Shown here piece after piece: positions 1 to 10,059 of a stretch of DNA of 10,981 nt; positions within the stretch are counted from its first letter, which is position 1, and each line of letters opens with the position of its first letter. The DNA comes from a virus. Its lineage: Duplodnaviria; Heunggongvirae; Uroviricota; Caudoviricetes. Where the stretch lies: IMG/VR virus record IMGVR_UViG_3300037883_000041; one strand, 5' to 3'. Below the pieces are notes generated by a model. That model made no database searches. It had not been told where the DNA came from and was given only the letters and a program-made list of their open reading frames with translations. A program made the translations under genes and the position numbers.

Positions 1-141
1 AGCTTCAAGTGGCGCAACGACTGCTTCGCCGAAGCAATGGAAACGTACAACGACGGAAGCTCCGAAGAAGCACAAGAGAATCCCGTTGAAGTCGACGGCT
101 TTATCGCACAACCCAACTGGATGCAGTGGTCATCCTCTTAA
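1..141 (+). CDS. 3' end of a gene truncated by the window edge; hypothetical protein (SFKWRNDCFAEAMETYNDGSSEEAQENPVEVDGFIAQPNWMQWSSS*)
   Basis: My own translation: frame 1 is open from base 1 to TAA at 139-141. Codon style matches the downstream genes, and the stop lies 16 nt before the next start. Confidence 0.7.
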   Translation, partial: SFKWRNDCFAEAMETYNDGSSEEAQENPVEVDGFIAQPNWMQWSSS

Positions 142-157
142 ATAACTGGAGTCTGTC

Positions 158-2782
158 TTGAAGAAGAAACTCGGACGATTGAGCCTGGAGTCATTTGACC
201 AGGCCCCGACTGGCAACGTCGAACCCACGGCACAGCCGGTCACCCCGCCGCAACCCCTCGTGCCGACGGCAGGCTACAGCGAGACCCCGTTCAGTGGACA
301 AGAGAACTACGCAGCGGAAGAACACGTCGAAGCTGACGTGAAGGAATTCTGGCAGAAGCTGCTCGGCTACTGGAAGCATTACGGGGATGACGAGATCCTC
401 GAAAGCCTGAACCCTGGTGCGAACTCCGGCGAGATCAGTGCGCTGGAATCCGAATTCCACGTTCGGTTGCCGGAAGCCTTCATCGCGTTGCTCAAGCTGG
501 CCAATGGTCAGACTGAAGACAATCATGGCGGCTGGTGCTTTGGTCATCGCGAGTTCCTCGGTACGCAACGTATCATCGAGAAGACGCGCGAGTGGCAAGG
601 ACTGAACCAGCAAGCCTGGGGCATGTATAGTACCGAGTACGCCGACAAGGAAGTGAAGAAGACCGACTGGAGCGACAAGTGGTTGATCTTCGGCTGGTCG
701 GAAGATCACAAACCGTCGTTCCTCGTGCTCGACTTCGATCCGACGCATGAAGGCAAGATGGGTCAAGTGGTGTCGATCGATCTGCGTGAAGGTCGTCGTG
801 TTGTGGTGGCACCGGACTTCCTCACGTGGTTCAAACGCTTCGTGACGCACCTCACGACGCCGAATCACGGGTCGGTGGCTGCAGAAAGCCACGCTAAGCC
901 CCCTTATCCGCTGCGTACGGCGCTCGAAGCTGATGCGATGGTCGTAGACGTGGATGATCTGGACCAGCTCGCTGTAGGGGCTAATAGCCTGTCTTCGTAT
1001 TTGACGGAGTCAGGCGCTGGGATGGCGTTGGAATCGGAAAAGAACCCGAGCGACATCGCCAAGAGCAAGATGCATCTGCGCTTCAAGAAGCTGAAGGACG
1101 GCTTTGTCGACACCTTCCGCTCGGCCGCAGGCATGGCTTCGAAGTACGAGAAGCAGCTCGACGAGCTGGAAGAAGAGTTGCTCAAGGGTCACACACACGG
1201 CCAGATCAAGGTGAACATGTCGCACCTCTGGCAGCACTTCTCCGATGAGAAGGGTCCGATTACGCACAACCTCATCACCAAGGTGAAGGAAGACGTCGCG
1301 TTCTCGACCTACATCCTCACGGTGTTCTCGGAGCAGGCCTACCAGGAACTGGAAAACCTCTCGCGTGCGCTGCACACGGGCCAGGGTACCGATGACGAGC
1401 AGGCTAAGCGTACCGCACTGGACGTCGAGAAGCTGAAGGGTCCGGCTGAGTACATGGATCAGAAGTGGGTCTGTGCAGCAGGCGAGCAACCGTACCTGTC
1501 AGTCACGGGTCTGTCGGTGCAACAAGGCCGTCATCCGCGTCCGGTCGGCATCGAAGGTGTATCGCTCGATCGTCTGGCTTTGCTGGCTACGCCGTACCAC
1601 TTGCGCGAGTATGGTTCGTTCATGCACGGCCTGAAGAAGATGTTCGTGAGCAACTCGACCAAAGAAGTGCACATGGCGGCTGAAGATCTCGCCAAGCTGA
1701 TCGTGATCGGCCGTGAGTACCTGAGCGCTGCCAAGCTCTACCTGGCGATCTACAACAAGGTCTGGCCGATCTTCCGTCGTCTGGACGACAGCCTCGACAT
1801 GATCTGGGATGACTTCGGTCTGACGGATTACGAGATCAACATCGAGGGCAAAGCTGAAGACGGTAGCGAAGACGTCAACATCCAATGGCAGGAATCGGAG
1901 ACGGGCAACGTCAAGCGTCGTCTGGTGGTGTTCGACCAGCTGATGCAAGTGGTGCGCAACTTCTCCGACGCTGTTCTGCAACCGGGCGTGAACGAACTGG
2001 CGCGTGCATTGCGCGCAGCGAAGTTCCATGGCTATCTGGTGGCCGCTGGGATCAAGGCAGCTGAAGGCAAGGGGCAGCACGCAGGTAACGTGGCGCAGGA
2101 GTTGTTTGGCTTTGGTAAGAAGGAAGAACCGAAGCCTGCTGAATACGCGAGCCCGAAGGACAAGGATATTCCGGCACCGCAATGGGACCCGAATCATCCG
2201 CCCTCGATCGCCGAGTCCTGGAAAGCCTACACCGCGTTTCTGAAGCAGGAAGCACCGGAAGCACTCAAGTATATTCGTCCGCTCAAGTCCGACGAAGAAC
2301 TGAAGAAGCTTGTGGCGCTTGTCAAGGAAAGTACTGGTAAGCAGTTCCCGGCAGACCTCATTGCGCTCTGGAAGCTCACCGATGGTCTCGAAGCATCGAG
2401 CAATCATCCGGGGATGTTTGACCACCTGGACTTCCTCACCGTGCACTGGTCGTACGACGCCTATCTGAGTAACCTGGACATGATGGACGACGACTGGGCG
2501 GATAGTGATTCGAAGGTCGGTCAAGGCATGCAGGGTAAGAAGTGGTGGGAACCCTGGTGGATTCCGTTCACTTCCAATGGCGGTGGCGACTCGATGTGTG
2601 TCGACATCAATCCAGGCAGTGGCGGTAAGGCAGGACAAGTGATCGCTTGGTATCACGATGCAAGTGATCGCCGTGTGGTCGCGCCGAGCGTCGCAGCGTA
2701 CTTCGCGCTGAGTGTTCACCGCCTCATGTATCTTCACGGCCACAAGAAGGACTGGGATTCCAAGAACGGTCCTAAAGAGTAA
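158..2782 (+). CDS. Putative jumbo-phage internal head protein fused to two SMI1/KNR4 (SUKH) domains (SUKH - head core - SUKH), 874 aa
   Basis: TTG start with GGAG at 148-151 (6-nt spacer). aa ~60-232 and ~683-856 carry SMI1/KNR4 signatures. aa ~305-635 align by eye with ORF 2850..4283 (RFKKLKDGFVDTFRS/PFKRWKDRLGDLFKS, AKRTALDVEKL/AKRAALEVEKL, PYLSVTGL/PYLGVTGL, ELARALRAAKF/EANRALRGARF). Confidence 0.85.
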   Translation: MKKKLGRLSLESFDQAPTGNVEPTAQPVTPPQPLVPTAGYSETPFSGQENYAAEEHVEADVKEFWQKLLGYWKHYGDDEILESLNPGANSGEISALESEFHVRLPEAFIALLKLANGQTEDNHGGWCFGHREFLGTQRIIEKTREWQGLNQQAWGMYSTEYADKEVKKTDWSDKWLIFGWSEDHKPSFLVLDFDPTHEGKMGQVVSIDLREGRRVVVAPDFLTWFKRFVTHLTTPNHGSVAAESHAKPPYPLRTALEADAMVVDVDDLDQLAVGANSLSSYLTESGAGMALESEKNPSDIAKSKMHLRFKKLKDGFVDTFRSAAGMASKYEKQLDELEEELLKGHTHGQIKVNMSHLWQHFSDEKGPITHNLITKVKEDVAFSTYILTVFSEQAYQELENLSRALHTGQGTDDEQAKRTALDVEKLKGPAEYMDQKWVCAAGEQPYLSVTGLSVQQGRHPRPVGIEGVSLDRLALLATPYHLREYGSFMHGLKKMFVSNSTKEVHMAAEDLAKLIVIGREYLSAAKLYLAIYNKVWPIFRRLDDSLDMIWDDFGLTDYEINIEGKAEDGSEDVNIQWQESETGNVKRRLVVFDQLMQVVRNFSDAVLQPGVNELARALRAAKFHGYLVAAGIKAAEGKGQHAGNVAQELFGFGKKEEPKPAEYASPKDKDIPAPQWDPNHPPSIAESWKAYTAFLKQEAPEALKYIRPLKSDEELKKLVALVKESTGKQFPADLIALWKLTDGLEASSNHPGMFDHLDFLTVHWSYDAYLSNLDMMDDDWADSDSKVGQGMQGKKWWEPWWIPFTSNGGGDSMCVDINPGSGGKAGQVIAWYHDASDRRVVAPSVAAYFALSVHRLMYLHGHKKDWDSKNGPKE
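335..853 (+). other. SMI1/KNR4 (SUKH superfamily) domain 1 within 158..2782
   Basis: LNPGANSGEISALESEFHVRLPEAFIALLKLANGQ ... KWLIFG ... FLVLDFDPTHEGKMGQVV ... VVAPDFLTWF matches the known SMI1/KNR4 pattern (L-x-P-G-A..E-I..LE......LP..F..L....NG; W..F; D.....G.V; vA.sf..w). Confidence 0.85.
1034..2062 (+). other. Head-protein core domain within 158..2782, paralogous to the mature part of 2850..4283
   Basis: At least five collinear conserved blocks are shared with ORF 2850..4283. DNA similarity is also visible: gctaagcgtaccgcactggacgtcgagaagctg (~1403) vs gcgaagcgtgcagcactggaagtcgaaaagctg (~3594). Confidence 0.85.
2204..2725 (+). other. SMI1/KNR4 (SUKH superfamily) domain 2 within 158..2782
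   Basis: FPADLIALWKLTDG ... WWEPWWIPFTSNGGGDSMCVDINPGSGGKAGQVIAWYHDASDRRVVAPSVAAYF is a close match to the C-terminal half of bacterial SMI1/KNR4 proteins (WIPF..dGgG...cvD..P...G..GQVI...hd). Confidence 0.9.
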
Positions 2783-2849: not shown

Positions 2850-4283
2850 ATGAAAAAGAGTCTGCACCGTATTGCGCTGGAATCCGAGCGCGTTGAAGAA
2901 GTCCGCGTCGAGGAAGAGCGCACGGAAGAGCTGCGCCGCGTCGAATTGTCGGAGCCGGTCACCAACGAACCCGAACTCGCCGAAATCGACCGCGTGGCGG
3001 ATGACGCCGACGGCGAATACGACATGGAGCAACAGGAAGCCGTCGCGATCGAACAGCTGGGTGCTTGGCGCGACCTGCTGGCTCACCAGATCAAGACGAA
3101 GACCGTCTCGATGGAATCGATCGCACTGATCCAGATGGGCGTGCAGCAGATTTACGCGTCGCAAGGCGTGCGCATGCGCACCGTCGCACAAGAAAGCAAC
3201 ATGACGGCAGAAGCCTACGGCACCTACGTCATGGAAAGCATCTTCGGCGCGATCGGCAACAGCATCGTGCTGCCATTCAAGCGTTGGAAGGACCGCCTCG
3301 GCGATCTGTTCAAGTCGCTGCCTGCGCAAGCTGAGAAGTACAAAGGCAAGCTGGAAACGGCTCGTCAAGAACTGCACCAGAAGCCGTTCTCGGGCGCTGC
3401 TGAAATCAACATGCACGAACTGTGGGGCTTCTTCACCACCGGCGAAGGTCAAGCTGTCAAGACACTCGCCGTCCTGCAGAAAGACTTGGCAATGGACAAG
3501 TACGTGCTGGTCGACTACCCGCAACAACTGGGCAAGCTGGTCGCCTCGCTCGCTGGCATCGTGGGCCACGGTGACTTCAACTCGCCGGAAGGCGCGAAGC
3601 GTGCAGCACTGGAAGTCGAAAAGCTGCAGCACCCGGTCGACATGTTCAACCAACAGTTCATCTCGCACGGCAAGAAGCCGTACCTGGGTGTGACGGGTCT
3701 GGACATCAAGGTCGGCGCGAAGCGCAAGGTGCTGTCGATCGACGGTCAAGCGTTCACGAAGCTCGCTGAACTGGCGTCGGTCAAGCGTGTCGACGAATCG
3801 AGCTCGTTCGGTCACAACTTCCTGAACGCGGCCGGTAAGGTCGGCGGCAAGGTGCTCGGCAATGCCGTGAACACCGCCTCGATCGTGCTGTCGAAGAACG
3901 CGAAGATGACCTCGCAAGAACTCGACAAGCTGATCACGTTCGGCGAAGAGTACGTCAACAACGTCGACGCGTACCTGAAGAACAGCCAGCAACTCTGGAA
4001 CAGCCTGCAACAACTGGACCAAGCCATCGAGAAGCATTCGCATGGCAAGCTGCAAGGCGAAGCTGCGGCAGTGTTCATGCAGATCGCTCAGTTCGCGGAC
4101 GTGTGCGTGCAAGCTGCGGGCAACCCGGCTATCCGTGAAGCGAACCGTGCGCTGCGTGGTGCTCGCTTCGTGGCCTACATGGCTCGTCGTGGTATCTTCC
4201 ACGGCAAGAACAGCGGCCAAAGCAACCAAGAAGCACCGGCAGCTCCCGCTGGTGAAGAAGGTGGCGAAGCAGCAGCTGCGTAA
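2850..4283 (+). CDS. Putative phiKZ-like internal head (ejection) protein with cleavable acidic propeptide, 477 aa
   Basis: Very Glu-rich N-terminal region with ALE(9-11), SME(87-89) and AQE(113-115) motifs matching the phiKZ-type prohead protease consensus (S/A/G)-X-E, followed by a helical core. Paralog of the middle of 158..2782. Confidence 0.75.
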   Translation: MKKSLHRIALESERVEEVRVEEERTEELRRVELSEPVTNEPELAEIDRVADDADGEYDMEQQEAVAIEQLGAWRDLLAHQIKTKTVSMESIALIQMGVQQIYASQGVRMRTVAQESNMTAEAYGTYVMESIFGAIGNSIVLPFKRWKDRLGDLFKSLPAQAEKYKGKLETARQELHQKPFSGAAEINMHELWGFFTTGEGQAVKTLAVLQKDLAMDKYVLVDYPQQLGKLVASLAGIVGHGDFNSPEGAKRAALEVEKLQHPVDMFNQQFISHGKKPYLGVTGLDIKVGAKRKVLSIDGQAFTKLAELASVKRVDESSSFGHNFLNAAGKVGGKVLGNAVNTASIVLSKNAKMTSQELDKLITFGEEYVNNVDAYLKNSQQLWNSLQQLDQAIEKHSHGKLQGEAAAVFMQIAQFADVCVQAAGNPAIREANRALRGARFVAYMARRGIFHGKNSGQSNQEAPAAPAGEEGGEAAAA

Positions 4284-4301
4284 GCAGTAACTGTCTAAAT
4301 G

Positions 4302-4325
4302 AGAGGCGGGCTTCGGTCCGCCTCT
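4302..4325 (+). terminator. GC-rich hairpin with C(UUCG)G tetraloop, probable terminator after 2850..4283
   Basis: agaggcgggc-ttcg-gtccgcctct forms a 10-bp stem. One G-U pair works only on the + strand. There is no classical U-tract; TATGCCGTTTA follows. Confidence 0.7.
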
Positions 4326-4387
4326 TATGCCGTTTACTGACTTGCTGAATCTTATAGAACTCCCTCCAATCCTTTATTGGTCCCACT

Positions 4388-5131
4388 ATGAGCCAAGCAG
4401 AACAGTTGACACAGTGGCTCGAGACTGTGTCCGAGAAAGTCCGCAAGAATGTGACGGTCGTAACGCCTGAAGAAGTGGGTCAGGATTACTTCCTCCACAT
4501 GAGCACGGACACGGGAATCAAGAAGTTCATCCCGCACATCGGGCGGCGCCAGGCTTATAGCGAGGACCGTTCGGTACCGCGCATTACTGTGGCCCCGACC
4601 TTGCTGGGATGCTTCATTGGTTACGCGAAGAGTGCGTACGATTTCCAAAACTTGCCTTCGGTAAAGAAAGCCGACGAGAAGGGTTACAAGGGCGGCTGGA
4701 AGATTTACGCCCTGCCCTTTCAAGCGGCTCTGAAACCGACGGCTCGCATGGTGTATGACTCACGGGTCAGTGACGAGCACTGGCTGGTGTCGTACAACCG
4801 GGAAACGAATGAGTACATCCCGGAAACCGCAGGCAAAATGTTCTTCCGTTCCATCCGACTCGTCTCTCGTGCAGGTAACATGCCGGAAGGCGAGATGGAG
4901 CTGTACGCGGAGATCACCAAGCCAGGTGGTGTACGCTTTAGCAAGAACATTCGATTGGATGTGGGCTATCATCGTATCGTGGGGCCCCTTCAGGAACACG
5001 TGAAGGCCTGGACCGATGATAAGGGCTATGTGTCCACACCGATCGATAAGGCTGAGTACTTCTCGGCCAAGAACGCGTCGGCTGACTTGCTCAGCCTGAC
5101 ATCTGGCATCCCTCCCCATCTTCAGTGGTAA
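4388..5131 (+). CDS. Uncharacterised phage protein, possibly ADP-ribosyltransferase-like fold, 247 aa
   Basis: Motif order FLHMST (H37) ... EDRSVPRITVAPTLLGCFIGY ... WKIYALP ... YDSRVSDEHW (E130) resembles the strand/helix order of H-type ART domains. No clear Shine-Dalgarno. The fold is inferred from motif spacing only. Confidence 0.5.
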   Translation: MSQAEQLTQWLETVSEKVRKNVTVVTPEEVGQDYFLHMSTDTGIKKFIPHIGRRQAYSEDRSVPRITVAPTLLGCFIGYAKSAYDFQNLPSVKKADEKGYKGGWKIYALPFQAALKPTARMVYDSRVSDEHWLVSYNRETNEYIPETAGKMFFRSIRLVSRAGNMPEGEMELYAEITKPGGVRFSKNIRLDVGYHRIVGPLQEHVKAWTDDKGYVSTPIDKAEYFSAKNASADLLSLTSGIPPHLQW

Positions 5132-5135
5132 GAAC

Positions 5136-6443
5136 ATGAGATCTTTTAACTGGCGTAGTGCCCTCCAAGGAAGCAATGCTGTCGAAGAATTCCCGCCTCC
5201 TGGCGGTGGCACCTGGAGTCAGACCCAGGCCGAAATCGACGCGGCGAAGAATCGACCGACCGAAGACCAGGATCTCGAAGACACCGCCAAGCCGACCAAG
5301 CAGGCCGGGCAGATCGACGGCGACACTACGACACTCTCGGGTCAAGCCAAGCCTGGTCAGAACCCGGTGCCGGACAAGGAAGACACCCGCGGTGGTGGCG
5401 AGCCGAAGATCAACAGTGCGCCGGTGGATCTGGCCGATGTGGTGCTGACCAACCAGGACCGTCGTGCCTATCAGCCGCTCGTCTCGGACGCAGCCAGCAA
5501 GGACGCGGTCAATGAGCAGAACATCGCTCAGGAGTCAGGTCTCTTCGAGCGCATCAAGGATTCCTTCCAGCATCAGGAAAAGAGCATCCTGGAAGAACGT
5601 GCTGAGGCGAGAGAAAACCTGTCGCGTATCGAAGGCATGAAGACCAAGCTGCAAACGCGGCAAGGTGACGTGCATGAAAAGTCCGATACGATCCGGCTGT
5701 CGGCGTACGCCACGTGGCTGGCGATCGATGGCAAGGTGATGGACACCGAAGCAGATCTCATGCGTGAGCTGGCTCGTCTGCAAGAGTTCAGCCGCTGGTT
5801 CACTTCATCGTACGCCAAGTCGCTCTTTGACACCTACGAGTACATGGCGACGAAGGTGCTCAAGCTCGGTGAATCGAACCTGCCTGAGGCGAAAGCCAAC
5901 CTCGCCAAAGTCTTCGAGATCTACAAGCCCGAAGGCATGGAGAAGTACCTGACCGAAAAGAAGACGGTCGAGGACAAGGGGCAATCGTACACCGACATGG
6001 AATCGCCGATGTTCATGGGTTCCTGGCGAGTCGTAGCCTACGAGCAAGTGAAGACCAATCTGGCCCAAGGTCACGAGCTTACCTTCCGCTGGGAGAAGGC
6101 CAATGACAAGGTCAAGAAGGCTGAGCTGAAGCCCCTCTCCAAGCAGGCCATGCTCAAGGTCGTGGGTCAGCTGGAAGCCATCTCGAACGTCATGGCAGCG
6201 TTCAGTGCAGAGGCTGAGTTCAAGAAGGCCGTGCGTTTTTACGATGCACTCGACGAATTCGCCTACCGCTATCGCTACTTCAAGCAACTCCCCCGTGAAG
6301 AGCAAGCCATGGTTCAGTCGATCTACCAGATTTGCAACATGGTTGCCGAAGGCGTGCGGATGTGGTTTGCTGAGCGCGCCGTGAACCATACCGTCAAAGC
6401 AACGTTGCTGTACGTCGAGAAATCGATGCGCCGCATCAAGTAA
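5136..6443 (+). CDS. Putative phiKZ-like internal head protein with long disordered propeptide, 435 aa
   Basis: A ~130-aa Pro/Gly/Thr/Asp-rich N-terminus ends in AQE(131-133)|SGLFERIKDSF, followed by a helical, Lys/Glu-rich body. Starts 4 nt after the upstream stop. Confidence 0.65.
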   Translation: MRSFNWRSALQGSNAVEEFPPPGGGTWSQTQAEIDAAKNRPTEDQDLEDTAKPTKQAGQIDGDTTTLSGQAKPGQNPVPDKEDTRGGGEPKINSAPVDLADVVLTNQDRRAYQPLVSDAASKDAVNEQNIAQESGLFERIKDSFQHQEKSILEERAEARENLSRIEGMKTKLQTRQGDVHEKSDTIRLSAYATWLAIDGKVMDTEADLMRELARLQEFSRWFTSSYAKSLFDTYEYMATKVLKLGESNLPEAKANLAKVFEIYKPEGMEKYLTEKKTVEDKGQSYTDMESPMFMGSWRVVAYEQVKTNLAQGHELTFRWEKANDKVKKAELKPLSKQAMLKVVGQLEAISNVMAAFSAEAEFKKAVRFYDALDEFAYRYRYFKQLPREEQAMVQSIYQICNMVAEGVRMWFAERAVNHTVKATLLYVEKSMRRIK

Positions 6444-6454
6444 AGGAGTTACCC

Positions 6455-7834
6455 GTGGAAGAAGAAGTCATCGAAGCAACGGTGGAAACACCGGAAGTGC
6501 CGACCGAAACGGTGCTCCTGACCGAAGACGTCGAATGCACGCGCATGAACCGTCAGCTGGAGCGTCTGGAAAGCCTGCGTGGTCAACTGGTCGAGAACAA
6601 GCAACTCACCAGTGAAGTCGCGCTGGAGCATCAGGCTTTGACCGGCAGTGATTCACTGGTGGATGCGTACTTCAGTCCGGCTGCCAAGCAGAAGAAGTAC
6701 CAGATCGCCTCGGAAGGCCTTCTGCAGACCACCCAGACGCTACTCAAAAAGGCGAAGGACCTGCTCTGGAACATGATCGTCAAGGTCTTCAACTGGTTCC
6801 AGAAGCTCTTCATGGACAAGAAGCCGCTGACCGAAGCTGCTGTCGAAGCCGAGCATGCCAAGTTCAAGGAGTACGTGGGTCCGGTCGAACGGGCTGAACG
6901 GGTACCGAGTTCCCGGACAGCGATCATCGCAGCCGTGCGTGAAGCGGGTCTGGACGACAAGTACGTCGGTCAGTTGACGCCCGAGGAAATGGACATCTAC
7001 AACGAAGGTCGTTTCCATCAGGCAATGCAGCGGGTGATTCCGACGCTCAAGGGCTTTGACGTGTACGACGTCGTGGTTGCGCTGGAGAACTGGCACAAGA
7101 AGGCCTTGAAGGATGCTGAGATCTTCGATAGCGAGAATGGTCAGTTGGATGACGAGGTGATCGAACGCAAGCTCGAGATCTGGAAGAAGGACACCATGCG
7201 GGCGTTGGAGTCCGCTACCCAGATGTCGAAGTCGGTCATGGAAGTGCGTCTGCAGGCCTACCAGCTGGCTGTGGAAGAGCGTCGTAAGCTCAAGGTCGAT
7301 CCGCATTTCCATCTGGGCACGGATCTCTCCGGCATCATGCATCGTGGTCTGCGCATCTTCGATCAATCCGGCTACAAGCAAGTTGGCGACGGCATGCGTG
7401 ACGTCCATACAGGTCTCACCAAGACCGTGAAGCAATTGCAGACGTTGCGTCAGAACGCCGAGGTCGAATTGCAACAGATGCAGATGGGCGGCAGCAACAG
7501 CGTCATGAGTGCGCCGGGTGCGCGCAAGCCTGCAGCTGAGTTTGTTGAAGCGACGTTCATGAAGGAAGTGAACCGCATCATCTCGACGTTGCATCAATGC
7601 GTCCAGTCGGTGCAGTTGCTCAACAACTACTTCTCCTTCGTGGTGTCGTCCACACGTACAATCCTCAAGTACGTGCAGGAAACGGCCGTAGAGGCGATGA
7701 AGTACGGCGGTGATGTCAAGAGCTTGAACGAAGTCGCGCGCCGCGCTGAGGCCGGTGCAATCCAGCCTACAGAGACCGACCTCCAGAACAACCTGGGATC
7801 GAACTACGATACCAAGCTGGGTGACGGTAGCTAA
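6455..7834 (+). CDS. Putative phiKZ-like internal head protein, 459 aa
   Basis: GTG start with AAGGAG at 6443-6448. The acidic N-terminus has ALE(56-58) and ASE(85-87)|GLLQTTQTLLKKAKDLLWNMIVKVFNWFQKLF, the X-X-E|G-then-amphipathic-helix layout I associate with phiKZ internal head proteins. Confidence 0.75.
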   Translation: MEEEVIEATVETPEVPTETVLLTEDVECTRMNRQLERLESLRGQLVENKQLTSEVALEHQALTGSDSLVDAYFSPAAKQKKYQIASEGLLQTTQTLLKKAKDLLWNMIVKVFNWFQKLFMDKKPLTEAAVEAEHAKFKEYVGPVERAERVPSSRTAIIAAVREAGLDDKYVGQLTPEEMDIYNEGRFHQAMQRVIPTLKGFDVYDVVVALENWHKKALKDAEIFDSENGQLDDEVIERKLEIWKKDTMRALESATQMSKSVMEVRLQAYQLAVEERRKLKVDPHFHLGTDLSGIMHRGLRIFDQSGYKQVGDGMRDVHTGLTKTVKQLQTLRQNAEVELQQMQMGGSNSVMSAPGARKPAAEFVEATFMKEVNRIISTLHQCVQSVQLLNNYFSFVVSSTRTILKYVQETAVEAMKYGGDVKSLNEVARRAEAGAIQPTETDLQNNLGSNYDTKLGDGS

Positions 7835-8324: not shown

Positions 8325-8330
8325 AAAGCA

Positions 8331-9992
8331 TTACGACCAGCGCGCACGACCAGTCGGCGAACCAACCGGAGTGATTGCATCCATCGGTACGACCTGTTGC
8401 AGATGGACCACGCCAGATTGCGACACCGCACGCATGAGCAGACCGTGCATCATGTTGAACTCGAACTGATACATCAGCTGGCCATGAGCCTGCGGATTCA
8501 CTTGCTCGCGAACCACGTACATACGAGCAAGCACATCCGTGACGGTGATGTCAAGTGTGCGGATGTTTTCGATCAATGCCTTCAGGATACGGCCATAGCT
8601 ATCGAGATTGAAGGTCGACAGTTTGGCTTCTTCCATGAACGGCGTTTGCATCGCCGGACCCCACGCGTGCTGCTGCGTGAACTGCGGGCCTTGCGGACCT
8701 TGACCAAAGCGATGTTGACCACCCATACCACTCCAACCGCCGCCCCAGTGCTGACCGCCCAACCCGCCCCAGCCACGCCGCTGACCGTGGTGTGAACCCA
8801 TGCGAACTGACGTATCGGCATCCAGCGCGACACGATCGACAGTCTCCACGTAGTCAATGTTCACCAAACCATCCATCAGCGTCAGACCATTGACCGGCTT
8901 CAGGAAGACCGTATTCAGGTTCAGTGCCCCTACGAAGCGCTCACCGGTGAAGAGCTCAAGTCGCACTTGCCCAATCGGCGTAGGGCCGCCGACAAGACCC
9001 GGACCATACAGACGGCACAGTCGATACCCGATTTTGCCAGGGATGACCTCCGGGTTGGAAGGCGACGTGAGCATCTGGTAGTGCTGGGTCAGCTCTGCAC
9101 TCGACGCTGCGGTGAGGTGTTGTTTCAGGGCATTGCGCAGTTCAGGTTCCGCTGCGTGAATCGTCGGCTCTCCTTCGCCTTCGCCGATGTTGATGTACTG
9201 ATAGACGCCCGCCTTGTAGGGCATTGCGTGCTCTTCCGGTTCATCACCTTTCGGGCGTTCAACAGAGACGATCGCTTCACCCCAGGATACGCCTCCCAGA
9301 TCCTTCCAGCCCGTCGTGATACGCAAGCGTCCGGCCCGTGACCACGATCCCTTGTCAGCAACCATGATCTCGACTATCAGCGCACCACTTTGGTCCTTGA
9401 AGTCGTTCTTCATCGGCGTATCGATACGTACGATGTTAAAGAGACGGCTCGCAAAGAGACGCGGACGGTCTGCACCATGACCGATCGGGTAATCGTCAAT
9501 GATGTTCTTCACGATGTCCACCAACCATGCGTAGTTGGTCGCGCTGAATCCAGCGCGCAGCAGGAACTGCACGAAACGCGCTTCGTCCAGATACATCGGC
9601 GGGGCGATCATGAGGTGCTCTTCCGGACGAACGGCTTCCTTGCCAGGCATCCACAGCGTGATGCTTTCGATGTACTCGTACGTCTTGTCGTCATCGTCGC
9701 GAGCGCTCGTCTTGAAGAACAAGTAGTCGTTGAGGACCGAGGATACACGCAAGATGTCCGGGCGCTCCTCGGCGCGGATGATCTGGATCACTGCGTCATC
9801 GGCTTTGATACCGTTGGCTTCGACCCAGGTCAGGAAGAGCTTCAGATCATCCTGACATTCCTTACGTTCGCGATCAGGGTCGTCTGCGTGCACACCGATG
9901 CCGCGATGCGCGAGAATCAGCGCTTCGACGGTCGCAGGTGTGACCAGGGTTTCGGGAATGTCGATACGGATGATGCCGTCAGTCTTAATCAT
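8331..9992 (-). CDS. Hypothetical protein, 553 aa, with a Gly/Gln/Trp/His-rich low-complexity segment (aa 399-449)
   Basis: ATG with AGGAG at 10000-10004 (7-nt spacer), long ORF with normal codon style, terminator downstream. No family recognised. Confidence 0.85.
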   Translation of the reverse strand: MIKTDGIIRIDIPETLVTPATVEALILAHRGIGVHADDPDRERKECQDDLKLFLTWVEANGIKADDAVIQIIRAEERPDILRVSSVLNDYLFFKTSARDDDDKTYEYIESITLWMPGKEAVRPEEHLMIAPPMYLDEARFVQFLLRAGFSATNYAWLVDIVKNIIDDYPIGHGADRPRLFASRLFNIVRIDTPMKNDFKDQSGALIVEIMVADKGSWSRAGRLRITTGWKDLGGVSWGEAIVSVERPKGDEPEEHAMPYKAGVYQYINIGEGEGEPTIHAAEPELRNALKQHLTAASSAELTQHYQMLTSPSNPEVIPGKIGYRLCRLYGPGLVGGPTPIGQVRLELFTGERFVGALNLNTVFLKPVNGLTLMDGLVNIDYVETVDRVALDADTSVRMGSHHGQRRGWGGLGGQHWGGGWSGMGGQHRFGQGPQGPQFTQQHAWGPAMQTPFMEEAKLSTFNLDSYGRILKALIENIRTLDITVTDVLARMYVVREQVNPQAHGQLMYQFEFNMMHGLLMRAVSQSGVVHLQQVVPMDAITPVGSPTGRARWS

Positions 9993-10059
9993 TGTAATTC
10001 TCCTGTAGTGTTCGGGGTGTTAGTTGCGGCTTAGCGGTTCGTGAGGATCTTCTGCGCCC

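Follow-up and report, generated by a model that had tools for sequence, protein, structure and literature searches.

A single gene in the 10,981-nt stretch of DNA analysed here (hereafter the window; IMG/VR virus record IMGVR_UViG_3300037883_000041, part of a 162-kb jumbo phage contig) encodes an 874-aa protein of 98.1 kDa, read from a TTG start, that is best explained as belonging to the phiKZ internal-head (inner-body/ejection) lineage, as a divergent member that has acquired two SUKH domains. Both SUKH domains (SUKH1 and SUKH2) are flanked by conserved S/A/G-x-E motifs, which makes processing of the protein into separate pieces within the capsid probable. The reading we prefer, and to which we assign a probability of roughly 0.55, is that a gp175-type prohead protease cuts this internal head protein at multiple sites and that the SUKH pieces are most likely kept in the head and ejected. 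The protein (P0001) would enter the prohead like its paralogues, and the gp175-type protease (MEROPS S80) would then cut after E11, E54, E243, E257, E292 and E648, with the E292–S293 cleavage as the maturation cut that would create the N-terminus of the core. The expected products are a basic leader, a Pro-rich arm, SUKH1 (~22 kDa), two linker peptides, a helix-rich core (~40 kDa) and SUKH2 (~25 kDa; Table 1), of which the SUKH pieces would remain inside the capsid and pass into the host together with the DNA. An earlier note on this DNA, made from the single sequence, had proposed a three-product polyprotein; SUKH1, core and SUKH2 are indeed among the predicted pieces, but cutting at all six conserved sites would give as many as seven fragments.

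The comparative evidence comes from relatives of the window, the nearest of which is the Burkholderia glumae phage FLC9 (321.8 kb). FLC9 shares the gene order of the window and 81.6% nucleotide identity over 71% of the window length, and its gp96—a protein of ~99 kDa encoded ~5 kb downstream of the major capsid gene gp92 (phrog_3231)—is the orthologue of the 874-aa protein (72% identity). Six orthologues (49–73% identity) were aligned with the 874-aa protein to give a set of seven sequences, and the orthologues start with the same basic leader. The gene that follows in the window (P0002) encodes a paralogue of the core of this protein (27% identity, E 7e-34). When the paralogue, SUKH1 and SUKH2 were used as tblastn queries against 50,697 phage records, FLC9 was the sole match.

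The motifs that the earlier note had listed (SLE11, GQE49, AAE54, AAE243, ALE257, ALE292 and AQE648, the last followed by LFGFGKK) are all found at the claimed positions in the translation, and the Glu codons of the six sites considered here lie at 188–190 (E11), 317–319 (E54), 884–886 (E243), 926–928 (E257), 1031–1033 (E292) and 2099–2101 (E648). In the orthologue alignment, S/A/G-x-E was kept at E11, E54, E257, E292 and E648 in six of six orthologues and at E243 in five of six, the exception being the one orthologue that lacks SUKH1. The P3 residue changes within the allowed set (S, G or A at E11; A or S at E243, E257 and E292), and the inserted linker segments of the orthologues add ALES, AMES and ATES copies of the motif. 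Of the six motifs within SUKH1 and SUKH2, none is fully conserved. An AlphaFold model of the 874-aa protein had a mean predicted local distance difference test score (pLDDT) of 57 with both SUKH domains folded; pLDDT fell below 50 at residues 1–55, 235–302 and 637–660. These segments, which are likely disordered, hold all six conserved sites. In sequence, all six thus fit the substrates of gp175- and gp245-type proteases, which cut after S/A/G-x-E in exposed segments, and we consider the linker motifs to be very probably prohead-protease sites.

The assignment of the core to the internal head proteins was made at the level of the family. An exhaustive search of 1.8 billion proteins returned core relatives with 83 representatives, mostly 440–500 aa long and with the core at the C-terminus. 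PF12699 (phiKZ-like internal head proteins) was matched by 28 of the 56 aligned core-family members, and five of the closest matches, together with the C-terminally extended member P0087, exceeded its Pfam gathering cut-off of 27 bits (34–47 bits). A hidden Markov model (HMM) built from these six passing members recovered the paralogue P0002 at 4e-91 and residues 289–628 of P0001 at 6e-55. In a profile–profile hhalign comparison, the core family matched a canonical set of 11 proteins (phiKZ gp92–95 and gp162/163, SPN3US gp53/54, and three FLC9 paralogues) with a probability of 96.5% in local and 98.7% in global mode. Among the hhalign runs this comparison alone is convincing: those of the family profile against the single sequences of SPN3US gp53, SPN3US gp54 and phiKZ gp93 were weak (15–42% probability). 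Against phiKZ, the family profile gave only a marginal match, to gp97 (E 0.1). PHROGs returned no match for either paralogue, and Pfam recognized only the SUKH domains in the 874-aa protein. The window proteins are therefore best described, on sequence grounds, as a divergent sister branch of the PF12699 family.

Motif placement across the core family follows the same layout. A leader site was present in 51 of the 56 members and a pre-core site equivalent to E115 of P0002 in 53, with 369 S/A/G-x-E motifs in the N-terminal regions (240 expected) and 261 in the cores (273 expected). Both window proteins have a phiKZ_IP-type leader ending in S/A-x-E and pre-core sites: SLE11 and ALE292 in P0001, and in P0002 a leader ending ALE11, an acidic propeptide, then AQE115 and VME129 ahead of the core.

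Two side observations concern this family. FLC9 also carries three canonical PF12699 genes in tandem (264445–268332 of its record, minus strand), with open frames of 766, 440 and 458 aa (762, 435 and 455 aa from the first ATG) and leaders that end VALE17, LSLE27 and VSLE23, i.e., in S/A-L-E; the lineage thus possesses two separate clusters of internal head protein genes. Foldseek searches with the core of the 874-aa protein (1034–2101) gave weak matches, at a probability of ≤0.25, to the type III secretion tip proteins SipD/IpaD and to the pore-forming toxin component NheA, which we treat as a lead only since model confidence is low in the core.

Several of the predicted sites correspond to cuts mapped in other phages. 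Head proteins of phiKZ are cut at S/A-x-E (PMC9026906), and gp93 at SLE-13 (PMC5694885); the cryo-EM model of gp93 begins at Ser14, confirming the latter cut (PMC11297242). In SPN3US, the protease gp245 cuts at A-x-E; its mapped cuts include AQE-124 and E137 in gp54 and E125 in gp53, with a further gp53 cut at ARE-12 that is probable from gel-fragment evidence (PMC10052503). The leader of the 874-aa protein ends LSLE–S, as in phiKZ gp93. Profile alignments place AQE115 of P0002 on AQE-124 of gp54, and VME129 on E137 of gp54 and E125 of gp53. E292 of P0001 was in turn set on E129 of P0002 by eye against the family consensus—the one eye-made step in this chain—and the family HMM match starts at residue 289, near E292. 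Given this homology to mapped cuts, we regard cleavage at E11 and E292 as highly probable. Cuts at E54, E243 and E257, for which conservation, low model confidence and cassette boundaries (see below) speak, are probable, though at a somewhat lower level.

The lineage has a protease that fits these sites. In FLC9, a homologue of gp175 (37% identity, E 8e-43; phrog_3014 at 3e-82) is encoded at 32369–33145 of record LC667451, and gp175-type proteases also occur in 19 related IMG/VR contigs. ALE143 of the FLC9 capsid protein aligns with the GLE163 cut of phiKZ gp120 (PMC11297242), and ALE197 of the FLC9 protease stands at the position of ALE210 in gp175 (matched by eye), so that the cleavage code appears to hold in the FLC9 lineage. 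The claim that the linker motifs are prohead-protease sites was thus strengthened from four sides: membership in the phiKZ_IP lineage, the gp175 homologue in FLC9, the equivalents of mapped cuts, and the low-confidence segments. As to the fate of the products, phiKZ retains both sides of the cut: in gp93 and gp162 the N-terminal regions form a lining of the capsid, and the helix-rich parts are believed to make up the inner body (PMC11297242). A precedent for multi-product processing in the PF12699 family therefore exists. The inferred processing of the 874-aa protein is, taken as a whole, well supported.

Residues 12–54 of the 874-aa protein, with 69–93% identity across the orthologues, 23 invariant columns and pLDDT <50, are possibly a capsid-binding arm comparable to residues 14–84 of phiKZ gp93 (PMC11297242). 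In T4 and phiKZ it is the N-terminal leader or N-terminal region that does the targeting or capsid binding (PMC9026906, PMC11297242), and by analogy the leader and the 12–54 arm would be at least as likely as the core, which the earlier note had cast as the carrier, to direct incorporation into the prohead.

The SUKH domains (Pfam SMI1_KNR4, PF09346) were detected at residues 92–224 (62 bits) and 722–849 (63 bits), above the cut-off of 25.4 bits. Residues 55–242 match whole stand-alone bacterial SUKH models of equal extent (template modelling score ~0.8), and SUKH2, modelled at a pLDDT of mostly 65–90, matches Knr4, the SUKH domain of FBXO3, BF1740 and YobK in Foldseek. When the window was compared to FLC9 by blastn, similarity ended at nt 318 and returned at nt 884, at the codons of E54 and E243; base by base, identity collapses right after AAE54 and recovers at E243–S244. 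At the protein level, identity to FLC9 is 90–93% for residues 1–54, 29% for residues 55–243, 85% for residues 244–292, 91% for the core and 70% for SUKH2. This homology break at the two Glu codons argues that SUKH1 has been exchanged as a cassette whose boundaries are these sites.

The distribution of the domains among relatives is in line with such exchange. The window SUKH1 shares 29–33% identity with every other allele, and no close relative of it was found in IMG/VR or by tblastn of the 50,697 phage records; likewise, no stand-alone relatives of SUKH2 (124–396 aa) were found. SUKH1 is absent from the family members P0008 and P0009 and from three IMG/VR relatives (L032–L034). In these three, the AAE and ALE sites are 8 residues apart, indicating that SUKH1 sits between two neighbouring propeptide sites. 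Conversely, one orthologue (P0005, from a 326.6-kb JGI metagenome contig) has a third SUKH domain (residues 884–1058, PF09346 38.7 bits) following AQE–S, so some relatives have three cargo domains; its SUKH2 is a very different allele with 21–29% identity to the others. The VAQELFGFGKK junction recurs ahead of a SUKH domain in P0024, a distant member of the family, and within the FLC9 genome SUKH domains occur in gp96 only. Based on these comparisons, we propose that SUKH domains are exchanged as cargo cassettes placed between pre-existing cut sites. A toxin partner encoded nearby and packaged alongside was also considered and set aside: Pfam detected no toxin domain in the other open reading frames (ORFs) of the window or in FLC9 gp93–gp95 and gp103–gp106.

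Several observations weigh against the multi-site reading, and we discuss them here together with the alternatives to which they lend themselves. As to the lineage, PF12699 itself matches neither P0001 (E ≤ 0.01) nor P0002 (E ≤ 0.1), and a PF12699 scan of FLC9 picks the three other genes rather than gp96 and gp97. The evidence for the protease stems from relatives (FLC9 and the 19 IMG/VR contigs), the window's contig not being among those loci, and virion proteomics or biochemistry of this phage or of FLC9 was not found in the literature. As to the motifs, S-x-E364 and AGE443 inside the core are conserved as well, in blocks of 75–80% local identity, and motif conservation by itself is thus no proof of cleavage. 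Moreover, the tripeptide is low in information. The 874-aa protein contains 21 S/A/G-x-E motifs compared to 15.6 expected from its composition, i.e., no overall excess, and 13 of the 21, omitted from the earlier note's list, lie inside domains. With shuffles that preserved the composition of each region, linkers held 8 motifs vs 4.1 (P = 0.026) and domains 13 vs 10.9; when the linkers were set by the structure model, the binomial P for linker enrichment was 0.037. The clustering in linkers, which the earlier note had presented as its evidence, was drawn from a selective list and is modest in this sequence alone (P ~0.03): suggestive, not compelling. NQE461 of the paralogue, offered there as a corresponding site, does not fit the consensus, is not conserved among the paralogue's orthologues, and was rejected.

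Low information content and the conserved motifs in the core would both suit an explanation in which the x-x-Glu triplets are short linear motifs that serve to target or bind the capsid, or arise by chance in Glu-rich linkers. We consider this very improbable, because S, A or G is held at P3 while the identity of the residue varies, the positions coincide with mapped cuts in homologues, the linker inserts of orthologues carry extra copies of the motif, and a matching protease exists in the lineage. The comparative evidence is much stronger than the clustering in a single sequence, and conservation lifts the motifs above chance.

The C-terminal site calls for a separate assessment. All mapped substrate cuts in SPN3US remove N-terminal propeptides, the lone C-terminal cut being in the protease itself (PMC10052503), and a cut at E648 is thus without direct precedent in that phage. 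In addition, LFGFGKK after E648 is invariant, i.e., as conserved as the motif itself, which suggests a constraint beyond a cut site, and a low-confidence helix is predicted over residues 642–650. If only the N-terminal sites were used, SUKH2 would stay on the core as a product of ~65 kDa and AQELFGFGKK would act as a hinge. We think this unlikely: A646, Q647 and E648 are invariant in all seven aligned sequences and also in P0009, in the midst of an otherwise variable linker (local identity 0.47), and every C-terminally extended family member found has an S/A/G-x-E motif ~20–45 residues past the core-end motif, even where the extensions are unrelated. Also, P0005 has its further AQE–S between the second and third SUKH domains, and C-terminal cuts are known in T4 Alt and in the proteases themselves (PMC9026906). 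From this invariance and the analogous sites in other extended members, cleavage at E648 is favoured, albeit less clearly than at the other five sites.

With respect to the fate of the SUKH pieces, SPN3US again provides a cautionary example: its long acidic PF12699 propeptides are mostly cleared from the head (PMC10052503), and SUKH1, which is located in the region equivalent to the propeptide of the paralogue, could be lost likewise. SUKH1 is, furthermore, dispensable in some relatives, and in the orthologues it is not depleted of S/A/G-x-E but rich in non-conserved copies. The SUKH parts might thus act only in the prohead—for instance as assembly or folding adaptors binding the scaffold or the capsid protein—and then be degraded or expelled, even though the cuts are real. 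This we judge to be improbable, somewhat more so than the exclusive use of N-terminal sites. A folded domain of ~22 kDa that lacks conserved internal sites is not likely to leave in the form of small peptides, and slow co-evolution with its partner in the phage would be expected of an assembly adaptor, yet SUKH1 shows 29% identity between flanks of 85–93%, and the SUKH2 of P0005 only 21–29% to its counterparts. Rapid turnover of this kind appears to fit a host conflict better than an assembly role. Retention of the SUKH pieces in the head is most likely because they are folded 22–25 kDa domains without conserved internal sites, and their retention and ejection would also agree with the T4 and phiKZ precedents and with the rapid turnover. 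The related idea that the cargo domains have been purged of motifs was rejected: the observed/expected ratio is 0.75 in SUKH2, but >2 in the SUKH1 columns, an excess partly due to linker inserts.

Table 1 Predicted features of the internal head protein gene and its neighbouring paralogue.
Feature	Residues	Position (nt)	Strand	Basis	Predicted product
Gene for internal head protein with two SUKH domains (P0001)		158–2782	+	ORF, translation	
Basic leader ending SLE11; predicted cut E11–S12	1–11	158–190	+	conservation, gp93 likeness	1.3 kDa
Pro-rich segment ending in invariant YAAE54	12–54	191–319	+	conservation	4.5 kDa
SUKH1 cassette (fold ~56–234) ending AAE243–S	55–243	320–886	+	Pfam, homology break	21.8 kDa
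Linker with sites ALE257 and ALE292	244–292	887–1033	+	both Glu invariant, S/A at P3	1.6 kDa (244–257); 3.5 kDa (258–292)
Helix-rich core	293–648	1034–2101	+	divergent phiKZ_IP (PF12699-like)	40.1 kDa
Junction VAQE648–LFGFGKK; predicted cut releasing SUKH2		2090–2122	+	invariance, pLDDT <50	
SUKH2 (fold ~684–870)	649–874	2102–2779	+	Pfam, Foldseek	25.4 kDa
Paralogue (P0002), 477 aa, without SUKH		2850–4283	+	orthologue of FLC9 gp97	

The processing principle is already known. In the literature searched, however, we found no report of SUKH domains in phiKZ-type internal head proteins as folded, fast-evolving cargo, nor of domains set between conserved cut sites or of cassette exchange at cut-site codons. 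As a tentative idea about function, the SUKH domains may be ready-made immunity (anti-toxin or anti-nuclease) proteins that are packed into the capsid, freed by the protease and injected, so as to neutralize toxin-type host defences before phage expression sets in, and that are retargeted by cassette swaps at the protease-site junctions. If this were true, the cut site would double as a recombination joint for swapping SUKH cassettes. If the pieces are indeed retained and ejected, the arrangement would offer a rule, readable from sequence, for finding injected cargo of jumbo phages, as well as a candidate new class of injected anti-defence proteins built on a toxin-immunity fold. Since FLC9 is cultured and infects Burkholderia glumae, the prediction is directly testable.

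Other genes of the window were inspected alongside. The window opens (1–141, plus strand; FLC9 record 4004–6052) in the 3′ end of an orthologue of FLC9 gp95, an SNF2/ResIII-type helicase, and FLC9 gp94, upstream of gp95, is a divergent DnaB-like ATPase; replication genes thus separate the capsid gene from those for the internal head proteins. Downstream of the paralogue, 5136–6443 (plus strand) encodes a 435-aa orthologue of FLC9 gp99 (68% identity) with a leader ending AVE17–EFPPPGGG. The leader of gp99 is shorter and ends ALE13–EFPPPGGG; a cut-site-like motif has thus been kept across an indel, and the product is probably another protease-processed head protein. In the 459-aa product of 6455–7834 (plus strand), eight of eight S/A/G-x-E motifs have Ala at P3 and seven are conserved in FLC9 gp100 (92% identity), whose N-terminal part matched PF12699 below the threshold (19 bits, profile positions 11–124). 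This product is possibly a third internal head protein of very divergent sequence. Finally, 8331–9992 (minus strand) encodes a 553-aa protein with 46% identity to FLC9 gp102, compared to 68–92% for the neighbouring genes; blastn against FLC9 returned no high-scoring segment pair over 8326–9301 and only 66% similarity over 9302–10019. It is a second fast-evolving gene of the window, and has no family match.

Compared with known systems, the SUKH domains resemble bacterial SUKH immunity proteins in passing the PF09346 cut-off and in their structural matches to Knr4, YobK and BF1740, and their rapid allele turnover is typical of conflict proteins. In polymorphic toxin systems, SUKH immunity genes stand beside a toxin gene; here the domains form part of a predicted virion protein, and Pfam shows no toxin domain in the window and FLC9 neighbours scanned.

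Among the internal head proteins, the closest parallel is phiKZ gp93/gp162 (PF12699), which have a short leader ending SLE before Ser (SLE-13–S in gp93; SLE-11–S here) and in which cleavage parts an N-terminal region from a helix-rich domain, the same layout as predicted here; phiKZ gp175 and the protease of FLC9, the nearest relative, belong to the same family. For gp93/gp162 there is no report of a globular insert, SUKH or other, whereas the 874-aa protein has one between propeptide sites and another after the core. The SPN3US ejection proteins gp53/gp54 (paralogue family A) are likewise tandem paralogues, whose leaders are conserved (ARE-12) and whose propeptides are cut more than once (PMC10052503), gp54 having two pre-core sites (AQE-124 and E137) that align with AQE-115 and E129 of P0002. 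Those proteins, however, are ~420 aa long, have no added domains and lose only N-terminal propeptides, while one of the two paralogues here carries two cargo domains and a predicted C-terminal cut.

The functional analogy extends to T4, where gp21 removes an N-terminal tag of ~10 residues ending in Glu from IPI–III and Alt, and the freed cargo is injected with the DNA (PMC9026906). Related phages differ in their set of these internal proteins, of which IPI* acts against restriction (PMC9026906). Judged by its sequence, the 874-aa protein would work like a capsid targeting sequence (CTS) protein of T4 without being a member of the CTS family. The T4 protease belongs to a different family (gp21, S77) with the code L/I-x-E, in contrast to the S, A or G found at P3 of all conserved sites here. 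And whereas T4 encodes one cargo per gene, the phage described here and its relatives appear to have placed several cargo domains on one inner-body protein.

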